Position numbers and translations under genes: made by a program. Positions 15,573 through 20,462 of a stretch of DNA of 25,653 bases are shown here, in pieces (position 1 is the stretch's first letter; every line of letters starts with the position of its first letter). The stretch is taken from NCBI GenBank assembly GCA_964403365.1, contig CAYOFM010000001.1:1-25653 (forward strand). The letters run 5' to 3'. Below the pieces are notes generated by a model that did not search any database, was not told the origin of the DNA, and saw nothing but the letters and a program-made list of their open reading frames with translations. Origin of the DNA: an uncultured Candidatus Saccharibacteria bacterium (GTDB lineage: Bacteria; Patescibacteriota; Minisyncoccia; Minisyncoccales; CG1-02-41-26).

Positions 15573-15753
15573 GTGTAGGGGGGAGGGCATTTGCCGAAGG
15601 GGGCACTGCGCAGACGCACTCACTGAGAATAATAAACTATTATTGAACTTAGGAAGTGCGTCGAGCAAAGCCACATCCGTAACTGTATTTTAATTTATTT
15701 CTTTAGGATAGTGGCGGGTCCCCTGAGGCAAATGACCCGAACCTCTCTAACGC
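15573..15753 (+). other. GC-rich Y-shaped structured element filling the frr-sat spacer (ncRNA or ssDNA/MITE-like)
   Basis: About 30-bp interrupted closing stem plus two internal hairpins, with several G.T pairs on the + strand. Confidence 0.6.
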
Positions 15754-17032: not shown

Positions 17033-18040
17033 TTACTTCTTCGTCATCACACTTTTCTTATAAACATCTAAATTCTCCAATACAATACCTGTACCTTTAG
17101 CTACGCAAAATAAAGGATTTTCAGCTACAAAACATGGTACCCCTGTTTGCCTAGCAATCAATTGATCTAAATTTCTTAATAGGGCTCCTCCTCCAGCTAA
17201 AATCATCCCTTTATTCATAATATCTGCAGAAAGCTCTGGCGGAGTATCACGAAGTACCTGTTTTACTCCTTCTACTATCTCCATACAAGTAGGATAAATA
17301 GCTCGAGCAATTTCATTAGCAGTAATTTTAATGTTACGAGGCAAGCCAAGGGCTAAGTCTCTGCCCCTTATCTCTAACTGAGCATCTTTTTTCTCAGCAA
17401 AGGCCTTACCAATCTTTATTTTAATCTCTTCAGCTGATTGGCTTCCAATAGCTAAATTATGTTCTTTTTTAATATGCTCAGAAATTCTATCGTCCATTTT
17501 GTCTCCAGCTATTCTAACTGAGCTAGCAGTAACAATCCCGCCCAAAGAAACCACAGCAATTTCTGAAGTACCTCCACCAATATCAATAATCATATTACCC
17601 TCGCAAGAATGAATCGGAATGCCAGCCCCAATAGCTGCTAATATTGGCTCTTTAGCCACGTAAGCTGCTCTGGCTCCAGCAGCTCTGGCTGCTTCAATCA
17701 CAGCTCTTTTCTCAGTAGAGGTAGAACCAACTGGCACAGAAATCACTACTTCTGGTTTAAAAAAACCAAACCTGCCTTGAGCAGTTTTAATAAAGTGCCT
17801 AATCATAGCCTGAGTTACTTTGTAATCAGCAATTACTCCATCTTTCATTGGCCTGTAAACTACAATAGAATCAGGTGTACGGCCAATCATTAATTTAGCT
17901 TCATTACCCACTGCTAGTATGGTATTCTCCTGTTTACTAACCGCTACCACAGAAGGCTCTTGCAAAACAATCCCTTTTTTAGGGACAAAAACAAGACAAT
18001 TACAAGTTCCTAAATCAATAGCTATTTTTGTAACAAACAT
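17033..18040 (-). CDS. mreB: Rod shape-determining protein MreB
   Basis: IAIDLGT, EPSVVA, RPMKDGVIADY, IDIGGGTSEIA, LAGGGALLR. Confidence 0.97.
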   Translation of the reverse strand: MFVTKIAIDLGTCNCLVFVPKKGIVLQEPSVVAVSKQENTILAVGNEAKLMIGRTPDSIVVYRPMKDGVIADYKVTQAMIRHFIKTAQGRFGFFKPEVVISVPVGSTSTEKRAVIEAARAAGARAAYVAKEPILAAIGAGIPIHSCEGNMIIDIGGGTSEIAVVSLGGIVTASSVRIAGDKMDDRISEHIKKEHNLAIGSQSAEEIKIKIGKAFAEKKDAQLEIRGRDLALGLPRNIKITANEIARAIYPTCMEIVEGVKQVLRDTPPELSADIMNKGMILAGGGALLRNLDQLIARQTGVPCFVAENPLFCVAKGTGIVLENLDVYKKSVMTKK

Positions 18041-18068
18041 AAATAAAGTTTATAAATTTTGATTGTAA

Positions 18069-18223
18069 GCAGGTACGAGGGAGTCCTCTTGTATCGGCGT
18101 CTCGCAGGCGAATGAGCATGGTCCCCAAGGTAATCCGAGGGGTCATTCGCCGAGAGCCGAGCAGCGACTAACGGCTGGGTTAGTCGACTGCGTACGATAC
18201 AAGAGGACTACCCGAGTGCCTGC
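18069..18223 (+). other. GC-rich Y-shaped structured element in the murA-mreB spacer (ncRNA or MITE-like)
   Basis: Closing stem with a perfect 15-bp segment AGTCCTCTTGTATCG/CGATACAAGAGGACT, plus two internal hairpins. Confidence 0.7.
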
Positions 18224-18230
18224 CATCCGA

Positions 18231-19493
18231 CTAAACCCTCTTAATATCCGCACCAAGTGATTGGAGCCTCTCCTCTATTTTCTCATACCCTCTATCTATC
18301 TGATAAATATTATTTATCGTAGTAGTTCCCTCAGCTATTAAGCCAGCTACAATCAAGCTAGCTCCAGCCCTAATATCCCACGATTCAATTGATACACCAT
18401 GCAATTTATTTGGACCAAGCACAAACGCTCGATGAGGATCTACTATCTCTATATCAGCTCCCATTTTACGCAACTCTTGCACATATTGCAAACGATTTTC
18501 ATAAAGTGGATCATGTATTAAACTTTTACCTTTAATTTGAGTTAATAATGGCACCATTAAAGGCATTAAGTCTGTAGGGAATCCTGGGTGTGGTAAAGCC
18601 TGAATACGACAAGGTGTCAGCTCTTCCCCTGCCTCTATTTCAATATCACTTTCCCCTATCTTAATATTATTGATACCCATCTGGCTTAGAGTAGCCACAA
18701 ACATAGATAAATCATCTGGGTTAATATTGTTTACTTTTACTTTCCCCCCAGTGACAATACCGGCAATTAAAAATGTACCTGCTTCAATATAGTCGCCTAC
18801 TATTGTATGCTCTGTGCCTTTTAGCTCTTTTACTCCCTCAATTTCTAAACTGTGAGAAGATATCCATTTAATTTTAGCTCCCATACTATTTAACATTTTA
18901 ACTAAATCCTGCACATGTGGCTCTACGGCTGCTGTTTCAATAATTGTTTTACCCTCTGCTAAAACCCCTGCCATAATTACATTCTCAGTAGCAGTTACGC
19001 TAAACTCTGGTAAAACTATTTTTTTGCCAACAAGCTTATCTGCATTAAAATGATAAAATTCATCTTCTATTTCCACACTTACTCCCAACTCTTTTAAAGC
19101 ATCTAAATGAGTAGTAATCGGTCTTAAGCCAATTTTATCTCCCCCAGGCCTAGATATCTTAAAGTTTTTAAACCTAGGCAAAAGCGCTCCAATAAATAAT
19201 ACCGAAGTACGAGTTTTAGAAAACTTTTCAAAATCTATTTTAGATGGATCAACAGAATCTACTGCTTTTATCTTTACCCCTCTCTCTCCTACCCACTCTA
19301 TTTCTGCCCCCATATCTTTTAAAACCTCAATCATATTCTTTATATCCTCTACTAGTGGTAAATTACTAATTAAACATTCTTCTTTTGTAAGCAAAACAGC
19401 GGCAATGATTGCCGCAGCTGCGTTTTTGGACCCGCGTATTTCTACTTCTCCCTCTAATTTATTTCCACCGTTAATAACAAAATGTTTAGACAT
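18231..19493 (-). CDS. murA: UDP-N-acetylglucosamine 1-carboxyvinyltransferase
   Basis: GSKNAA, PGGDKIGLRP, SVTATEN, DYIEAGT, PHPGFPTDL, DIRAGA, IDRGYE. Confidence 0.97.
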   Translation of the reverse strand: MSKHFVINGGNKLEGEVEIRGSKNAAAAIIAAVLLTKEECLISNLPLVEDIKNMIEVLKDMGAEIEWVGERGVKIKAVDSVDPSKIDFEKFSKTRTSVLFIGALLPRFKNFKISRPGGDKIGLRPITTHLDALKELGVSVEIEDEFYHFNADKLVGKKIVLPEFSVTATENVIMAGVLAEGKTIIETAAVEPHVQDLVKMLNSMGAKIKWISSHSLEIEGVKELKGTEHTIVGDYIEAGTFLIAGIVTGGKVKVNNINPDDLSMFVATLSQMGINNIKIGESDIEIEAGEELTPCRIQALPHPGFPTDLMPLMVPLLTQIKGKSLIHDPLYENRLQYVQELRKMGADIEIVDPHRAFVLGPNKLHGVSIESWDIRAGASLIVAGLIAEGTTTINNIYQIDRGYEKIEERLQSLGADIKRV

Positions 19494-19619: not shown

Positions 19620-20462
19620 TCATCTCTTTTTTATGCCACCCCAAGTTATGGGTAGCCTATTCTGCTGGCTACGCTCACTATCGTGAGCGTCAGTGAGCAA
19701 ATTAAGAACATCCTCTTCTATCTGCTCACTAGCCAACAAATCATCCACCAATTCTTCAAATGATAGTGGATTCTTGGCTGGCGCCCCTTTCCCATCATAG
19801 GTCGGGAACTCGAAAATAATACCTGCTGAATATTGTAAAATCAGCATAGCATCACGGGTAGTCACTCCTCCAAGACCTGTGACATCAGCTCGTACCCATT
19901 CTTCTGATGTCAATTCTTCAGTCCCCAAGACGTGCAACAATATCATCACAGCATCTTGGGACGAAATCATACCATCAGCGTTGATATCGCCAATCTCGGG
20001 TATTATCTCAAAAACAATACCCTCTGTTTTCCCACCAAGCACCAACAAGTTAGCACCCTCGGGTTCAGGCCAACCATTAATCAACACTTTTTTAAACACT
20101 ATGTCAACAGGTCCACAGTAGTGTTTAATATTAAGCTTGAAAAAAATGGCTGGTTCAACTAATGGCGTTGCCCCTGTGGCAACAATTTTAATTAAACCAT
20201 CTTGGACTGACCAAACATAGAACCAGTCCTCAAAACCACCAGCTGGTTCTACTACATAAAATGGCGGCATCGTCGCTTGCGCCACTTTAACTTCAATTTC
20301 AAGGTCAAGTGAGCCAATCGCCCGATCTGGGTTCACCATCAAGTTTACCCCTTCTCCTTGAATAGCAAACCAAAACACTGGATCGCCACCTGCTGCAAAA
20401 ACAACAGAGGACAGGACCAAAAACACCATAATCGTCGCACAGATTCCCAAATTCTTCTTCAT
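19620..20462 (-). CDS. Secreted protein with a cohesin-like beta domain, a type I dockerin and a C-terminal TWGGIKKR motif
   Basis: Signal peptide ending SSVVFA; dockerin repeats GDINADGMISSQDAVMILLHVLG and ADVTGLGGVTTRDAMLILQYSAG; AAGGAG SD. Confidence 0.85.
   Translation of the reverse strand: MKKNLGICATIMVFLVLSSVVFAAGGDPVFWFAIQGEGVNLMVNPDRAIGSLDLEIEVKVAQATMPPFYVVEPAGGFEDWFYVWSVQDGLIKIVATGATPLVEPAIFFKLNIKHYCGPVDIVFKKVLINGWPEPEGANLLVLGGKTEGIVFEIIPEIGDINADGMISSQDAVMILLHVLGTEELTSEEWVRADVTGLGGVTTRDAMLILQYSAGIIFEFPTYDGKGAPAKNPLSFEELVDDLLASEQIEEDVLNLLTDAHDSERSQQNRLPITWGGIKKR

Follow-up and report, generated by a model that had tools for sequence, protein, structure and literature searches.

The spacer between murA and mreB in the window (the whole 25,653-nt stretch of DNA analysed here) holds a structured element that is probably one member of a mobile repeat family of Patescibacteria, whose copies are small, non-coding, GC-rich and palindromic. 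As far as we can judge, it is likely to behave as mobile DNA and not as a local RNA gene or switch. Copies of the family were gained and lost at gene boundaries, typically a few bases from a stop codon. The family is widespread in ultra-small Patescibacteria and apparently undescribed; a limited full-text literature search, which does not prove absence, returned no description of such elements for Patescibacteria/CPR.

Results

Structure of the element in the murA-mreB spacer

The murA-mreB spacer is 190 nt long and reaches ~60% G+C, compared with 35% genome-wide. RNA folding of positions 18060-18235 gave -96.2 kcal/mol for the + strand (z -8.48, with none of 200 shuffles equal) and -88.7 kcal/mol for the - strand (z -7.77), so that the + strand folds better. 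This structure is far beyond chance, and 18067-18225 is a very stable Y-shaped three-way junction on the + strand. The stems, the tandem GA/GA and the bulged A that had been described between the two genes were all confirmed by the helices of the fold. The features are as follows.

15573-15748, + strand: divergent sixth member of the family, in the frr-sat/cysC spacer (covariance model R2, 40.3 bits, E 1e-8, full length)
17033-18040, - strand: mreB, the downstream gene (MreB_Mbl, E 1e-134)
18028-18033 and 18051-18056, + strand: TTGTAA and TATAAA with a 17-nt spacer, judged from the sequence to be a chance match
18067-18225, + strand (the better-folding, 'model' orientation): whole element (covariance model R1, 171 bits; R2, 151 bits; fold)
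18069-18076 with 18216-18223, + strand: outermost stem of 8 bp, GCAGGTAC with GTGCCTGC (helix mapping from the fold)
18077-18078 against 18214-18215, + strand: tandem G.A mismatch, GA facing GA (helix mapping, consensus)
18079-18098, + strand: 5' arm of the long stem P1 (single-sequence fold, helix mapping)
18100-18155, + strand: arm 1, P2/P2b (consensus, helix mapping)
18161-18191, + strand: arm 2, P3 (consensus, helix mapping)
18196-18223, + strand: 3' arms of P1 and of the outer stem (helix mapping)
18231-19493, - strand: murA, the upstream gene in the sense of transcription (EPSP_synthase fold, E 5e-91)

The model orientation is antisense to both murA and mreB. The covariance model match starts at 18067, 26 nt from the mreB start codon (18038-18040, - strand), and the 3' arms stop 7 nt short of the murA stop codon (18231-18233). 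P1 has 17 bp, formed by 18079-18095 and 18196-18213 with A18210 bulged, and the single-sequence fold closes arm 1 at its base with GGC (18096-18098) paired to GCC (18156-18158). Arm 1 consists of the helices UCUC/GAGA, GGCGAAUGA/UCAUUCGCC and CCCC/GGGG and contains a conserved internal loop, TCG(S)AG / GA, as well as a conserved 7-nt bulge, GCATGGT (18116-18122). Arm 2 consists of GCAG/CUGC and CGACUAAC/GUUAGUCG with one bulged A, and its conserved loop (C/G)GCTGG corresponds to 18173-18178. The mismatched dinucleotides are parts of the conserved termini, namely the 5' terminus (G)CGAGG for GA 18077-18078 and the 3' terminus CCGAG(C) for GA 18214-18215. The outermost stem differs between otherwise near-identical copies and therefore may be outside the mobile unit.

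Error-free DNA contigs from independent runs cover 17728-18607 and 17634-18212, which confirmed the assembly. The locus is contained in 14 public runs, all of which are DNA from salt-lake metagenomes. The DNA contigs over the locus showed no informative joint, and their sole 'skips' were diverged relatives with 20-nt anchors. Elsewhere in the window, a 280-aa ORF between a U32 peptidase gene and murA (19620-20462, - strand) matches dockerin type I (E 5e-8); a domain of this kind is unusual in so small a genome.

An antisense promoter, TTGTAA-17 nt-TATAAA, had been suggested ahead of the stem. Its hexamers are present, but the promoter role was not borne out. The stretch overlaps the mreB start codon and failed a consensus promoter scan, and 8 promoter-like sites were observed in the region against 7.5 expected. 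There was also no promoter conserved in the 5' flanks of 33 family members, which had A/T richness alone in common. The promoter-like hexamers before the element are no better than chance.

A family of repeats within and beyond the genome

BLAST and R1, a covariance model built from the five close copies of the genome (632 kb, 80 contigs), identified four full-length copies besides that of the window, on contigs C19, C11, C63 and C67; these were 71-87% identical to the window copy. By its murA relatives, the organism is of the Patescibacteria/Parcubacteria type and resembles Nealson-, Staskawicz- or Gribaldobacteria. R1 matched in 10 of 61 related genomes. R2, a second covariance model built from 23 sequences, matched in 67 of the 151 sampled genomes of the same order, with 1-11 copies each. 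When a phylum-wide sample (n = 151) was searched, R2 matches were present in 12 genomes, that is, the own genome, two of the same order and nine others. Their distribution was patchy, with up to 13 copies per genome.

The preliminary description had regarded the window's two Y-shaped elements as related, and the R2 match to 15573-15748, obtained with filters off, supported this view. The second element has the same orientation as the murA-mreB copy and is single-copy by BLAST. On the strength of this match, we regard it as a divergent member of the same family. Its fold has -88.5 kcal/mol (z -8.7) and is without the GCATGGT bulge.

Searches of Rfam 15 returned nothing at gathering thresholds across the whole window, nothing relevant at E<=10 over 17950-18300, and no match for two variant loci, L035 and L036. 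None of 80 phage loci, taken from 120 IMG/VR stretches that matched a degenerate core pattern, fits the model. Two pairs of members stand back to back (G078:C10:5170-5488 and G126:C14:10978-11274), one inverted and one tandem, and recall BIME-like clusters.

Covariation and the strand on which the fold is selected

A covariation search, as proposed in the preliminary description, was carried out, and the family was found by covariance model. In the 23-member alignment, 91% of cells were paired and 58 of 61 pairs showed double changes; 0 of 500 shuffles and no slid control came near the observed values. The consensus of 44 members reads 5'-(G)CGAGG - P1 (~17-20 bp, one bulged A) - yTCG(S)AG - P2 - bulge GCAYGGT - hairpin P2b - P2' - GA-GAr - nnAG - P3 with loop CGCTGG - CGGT - P1' - CCGAG(C)-3'. 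The family termini face each other as tandem G.A mismatches. The variants L035 and L036 have an extra helix between the arms. In detail, these loci on G042 C11 (L035:1381-1581, L036:1374-1584) share a conserved insert of ~60 nt (CTCGCTGAACCTTCGGTTCC…GCGAAAACTCGGGAATGC) between the arms, which results in a four-way junction.

Across the 44 members, the model strand contained 70 G.U versus 44 A.C and 112 G.A/A.G versus 12 C.U/U.C mismatches, and it was the more stable strand in 41 of the 44, with a mean of 8.5 kcal/mol. From this asymmetry and the higher stability we conclude that the fold is under selection on one strand only, the model strand, which is the + strand in the window. Mutational bias was rejected as the cause of the asymmetry by reasoning that leading-strand cytosine deamination would favour A.C on the model strand, the opposite of what was seen.

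Gain and loss of copies at gene boundaries

The copies are flanked by murA/mreB, galT-like/tpiA, rplB/rpsS, and lysS-like (class II aaRS)/serS, and further ones lie upstream of mraZ or at PBP2, gatB and pnp. These neighbours are unrelated housekeeping genes with no functional theme.

It had been proposed that empty sites in relatives would favour a MITE over an ncRNA, and this check was run. None of 80 related murA loci has the element between murA and mreB, and ~58 of these loci have mreB directly downstream. The murA-mreB spacers of relatives are often only 0-60 nt. In many other relatives, this spacer is occupied by a long palindrome or by a GC-rich structured insert (130-230 nt): AT-rich palindromes were seen in L042, L055, L062, L066, L072, L083 and L088, and GC-rich inserts in L061, L069, L086, L090 and L091. 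L061 and L069 have one distinct element in common (…CGGAGAGGGGTCGGGAGAACC…). The murA-mreB spacer is a recurrent landing site, or hot spot, for unrelated foldable repeats.

We compared the complete genome G065 (639,534 bp, nine copies) with its congeners G173 and G135, whose flanks around four G065 insertion sites are ~90-95% identical. Neither congener has the copies at 106848 and 539129 at its orthologous sites, where the flanks are 90-93% identical. G135 but not G173 shares the copy at 228178, and both lack that at 466610. At one such site G135 keeps only GCGAGGCAGC/TTGCCGAGC, a 33-nt mini-hairpin of both termini. Thus, the four G065 insertions face empty or much shorter congener sites, which places the outcome of the empty-site check on the side of a mobile element. 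In one case the insertion falls precisely on the stop/start junction TAA|ATG at a pilC-like gene, leaving a TTG start codon. In another genome, G017, a copy lies in frame inside mfd (59.5 bits), and its ~49 residues are absent from the 55%-identical Mfd of G065.

No consistent target-site duplication was found at the three alignable loci, which had 0-1 nt of ambiguous overlap and ragged, unequal extensions; the spacers at locus 466610 were too different to place the junctions. Three insertions carry a variable AT-rich extension of 8-22 nt at one end. The flanks are heterogeneous and contain no conserved target motif. Because neither a target-site duplication nor a conserved target motif was found, a transposition mechanism is not demonstrated. 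Nor is recent movement in the window's own genome, since there are no near-identical copies there (the best pair is 87% identical).

Orthologous copies of G065 and G135 differ in their arms, and some of these arms are identical to those of other copies; arms therefore appear to have been exchanged between copies. In G065 C1:500155-500190 (L166/L167), a 33-nt piece from the 5' end of a copy of one subfamily directly adjoins a complete copy of a second subfamily at the joint CGGAG|CGAGG, which represents either a nested insertion or recombination at a terminus-like site. Insertion into pre-existing terminator hairpins was considered as the origin of the variable outer stem and was not supported for the copies with empty sites in G173, where no hairpin is present.

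Polarity with respect to genes and replication

Among 49 inspected members, the gene 3' of the model strand was on the opposite strand in 38 of 47 cases, and the stop codon of that gene was usually -5 to +8 nt from the end of the model. Where both neighbours are co-directional, the element was antisense in 29 cases versus sense in 8.

The cumulative GC-skew minimum of G065 lies at ~295 kb and dnaA at 304 kb, which marks the replication origin. The + strand carries the three copies located at 106-246 kb, and the - strand the six located at 466-539 kb. Taken together with the origin at ~295-304 kb, these orientations mean that all nine folding strands, which are antisense to local genes, are also the leading-strand template. 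Orientation likewise clusters by contig region in G211. The polarity in G065 may follow the direction of replication or that of transcription, two directions that are not separable here.

Candidate partner enzymes

No transposase adjoins any copy inspected. The own genome has three RAYT-like Y1 ORFs, whose best NCBIfam match, REP_Tyr_transpos, is below the family cut-off. Y1 genes were present in 47 of 67 element-bearing and 31 of 84 element-free genomes (odds ratio 4.0, p 7e-5, without phylogenetic correction). No Y1 match was found in 20 of the 67 element-bearing genomes, including genomes with 6-11 copies. On contig C62, the repeat at either side of the RAYT-like gene is another REP, AGGGCWGCCCT, and not the Y element. 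Y1/RAYT as a partner is thus enriched, but it is neither necessary nor adjacent to the element. The repeat AGGGCWGCCCT occurs in 53 copies in the 632-kb genome and in none in the window; on C62 (L186:1080-2100), and also on C9 and C16, it brackets a 246-aa RAYT-like Y1 gene of the own genome (G000) and even lies inside it.

Three further candidates were rejected. DUF559 is present in only 13 of 67 element-bearing genomes and is absent from the own genome. Reverse transcriptase (RVT_1) was found in 12 of 67 element-bearing versus 26 of 84 element-free genomes, and neither in the own genome nor in G065 with its nine copies. A single-copy, Xer-like tyrosine recombinase gene is present in the tested genomes with or without the element and is not adjacent to it; PF00589 gave no match in the own genome.

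Discussion

Mobile DNA as the preferred interpretation

We propose that the family consists of mobile units of ~135-175 bp, the conserved part of which extends from 5'-(G)CGAGG to CCGAG(C)-3'. One strand folds into a long stem that is closed by tandem G.A mismatches and bears two arms, which contain the invariant unpaired motifs TCG(S)AG/GA, the GCAYGGT bulge and the CGCTGG loop. This fold may be used as single-stranded DNA by a candidate structure-specific enzyme. Insertion or copy survival may be polar relative to replication and transcription, which would account for the folding strand being antisense to the genes in nearly all cases and being the leading-strand template. The window element itself is probably a passenger in the murA-mreB transcript, with at most a secondary effect as a stable hairpin, for example as a barrier, processing site or attenuator.

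The preliminary description had raised the possibility of an ncRNA, with self-cleavage or a ligand response as things to test. An ncRNA, riboswitch or ribozyme is not supported, in view of the empty sites, the in-frame copy in mfd and the lack of a promoter common to the 5' flanks. A cis-regulatory RNA such as a riboswitch or leader was also rejected on the grounds that the neighbours are unrelated housekeeping genes and that most copies are antisense. As a counterpoint to the interpretation as mobile DNA, invariant unpaired nucleotides together with freely covarying stems also fit a functional RNA.

Alternative explanations

It is possible, and we say so tentatively, that the family stands for something less conventional. 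It could be a new, structure-specified class of mobile DNA that moves as a folded single strand, with the Y shape, the G.A mismatches, the bulge and the loop as a recognition code for a host enzyme or for one yet to be found; or the fold could belong to an antisense RNA with a function of its own, which spread in the manner of mobile DNA. Members of such a class would insert with fixed polarity into the discontinuously copied strand, next to stop codons and without target duplication, by a mechanism that would be distinct from those of IS200/IS605, REP-RAYT and integron attC recombination.

We consider it unlikely that the copies act in cis on operon mRNA, as a - strand hairpin after a stop codon that would serve as terminator/attenuator, exonuclease block or RNase III site, so that the repeats would have been co-opted like E. 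coli REPs and the Correia elements of Neisseria. When their reverse complement is read, about 80% of copies are indeed gene-sense, and the gene upstream has its stop codon at -5 to +8 nt relative to the end of the element. The - strand is itself very stable (-88.7 kcal/mol), and several copies have A-tract/T-tract outer stems that resemble bidirectional terminators. However, selection favours the fold of the opposite strand, and the conserved tandem mismatches would read C.U/U.C on the mRNA strand. Termination would do harm in the S10 ribosomal-protein operon, and one copy lies there, between rplB and rpsS. Furthermore, no T-run follows the window copy on the - strand, and most relatives manage with murA-mreB spacers of 0-60 nt.

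A family of trans-acting or antisense structured small RNA genes, transcribed from the + strand by their own promoter, is in our estimate quite improbable. In this case, proteins or RNAs would bind to the conserved bulge and loops. The invariance of the unpaired motifs throughout the phylum, the selection of the fold on the + strand, the extra-helix variants (L035, L036) of a kind that many RNA families have, and a T-rich 3' flank in the model orientation all agree with such genes. Against them stand the absence of a conserved promoter in the 5' flanks of 33 members and the chance-level hexamers of the window, which overlap the mreB start codon. The same is true of the gain and loss of copies between congeners, the copy in frame inside mfd, the patchy distribution with copy numbers from 0 to 13, and the lack of any Rfam match.

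A retro-mobile element copied from RNA by a resident reverse transcriptase, whether SINE-like or derived from a group II intron or retron, might account for the AT-rich extension at one end of three insertions (8-22 nt) and for the polar orientation, but it is highly improbable given that RVT_1 is less frequent in element-bearing (12/67) than in element-free (26/84) genomes and absent from the own genome and G065, and that Rfam scans gave no similarity to intron domains.

Significance of the family

The genomes of Patescibacteria measure 0.5-1 Mb and leave hardly any DNA to spare. Nearly half of the sampled genomes of the order nevertheless carry up to 11 structured repeats of ~150 bp between or inside essential genes. 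Recognition of the family would prevent GC-rich islands of this kind from being misannotated as riboswitches, small RNAs or terminators. The covariance model can be used for masking the copies, and the copies can serve as markers for strain-level insertion polymorphism. Selection of the fold on one strand, together with the strict polarity, suggests one of two things: either copies move by a pathway that uses single-stranded DNA, or hairpins carry a cost in minimal genomes that depends on the strand. Should a partner enzyme be found, it might represent a DNA-insertion activity of a new kind, guided by structure.

Comparison with known repeats and mobile elements

In its behaviour the Y element is akin to the selfish palindromes of other compact or reduced genomes, namely Rickettsia palindromic elements (RPE), ERIC, Correia and REP. 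RPE are palindromic repeats of 100-150 bp in a reduced genome, dispersed between genes and in frame in essential genes, and they are not known to have a transposase. The Y element is likewise palindromic and tolerated in frame in a protein gene (mfd of G017), which is a likeness of behaviour only. RPE, reportedly described by Ogata et al. in 2000, belong to a different phylum. Unlike them, the Y element has copies that are mostly intergenic and abut stop codons, and it shows a conserved three-way junction, invariant loops and strong strand polarity.

ERIC/IRU and Correia (NEMIS/CREE) elements are imperfect palindromes of ~105-160 bp in transcribed spacers of enterobacteria and Neisseria. Their insertions are polymorphic between strains, and they can influence how mRNA is processed and how stable it is. 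A TA target duplication and a defined terminal inverted repeat mark the Correia elements, whereas the Y element has no consistent duplication. Its orientation is biased ~4:1, and its termini are G.A mismatches instead of perfect inverted repeats, in both respects unlike ERIC/Correia.

REP/BIME/REPIN sequences resemble the Y element as GC-rich extragenic palindromes just after genes, whose folding as single strands is implied. Also reminiscent of the REP-RAYT system are the presence of RAYT-like genes in the same genome and their enrichment in element-bearing genomes. Each REP is a simple hairpin (20-40 nt, GTAG head), and REPs flank the RAYT that belongs to them; the Y element has no conserved GTAG head, and the RAYT-like gene on C62 is flanked by the other REP, AGGGCWGCCCT.

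IS200/IS605 elements recognise imperfect hairpins in single-stranded DNA and insert 3' of a fixed tetra- or pentanucleotide. Like them and their non-autonomous derivatives, PATE, the Y element lacks a target duplication and has an orientation tied to the direction of replication. IS200/IS605 have no long terminal inverted repeats, in contrast to the long closing stem of the Y element, which in turn has no fixed target. The active strand of IS200/IS605 is the lagging-strand template, whereas the better-folding strand of the Y element is the leading-strand template (9/9 in G065).

Integron attC sites share with the Y element the precedence of structure over sequence, a fold on the gene-complementary strand after the stop codon, and unpaired spacer or extrahelical bases. 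The Y element differs from attC in that it has no cassette array and no adjoining integrase, it lies between core housekeeping genes, and nothing but the element is inserted.

Classical MITEs have a fixed-length target-site duplication, unlike the Y element. In other respects the likeness to MITEs is extensive: the Y element is small (~157 bp), non-coding and multi-copy (5-6 in the genome), its termini GCGAGG.../...CCGAGC and P1 act as long imperfect inverted repeats, and it shows insertion polymorphism with empty orthologous sites.
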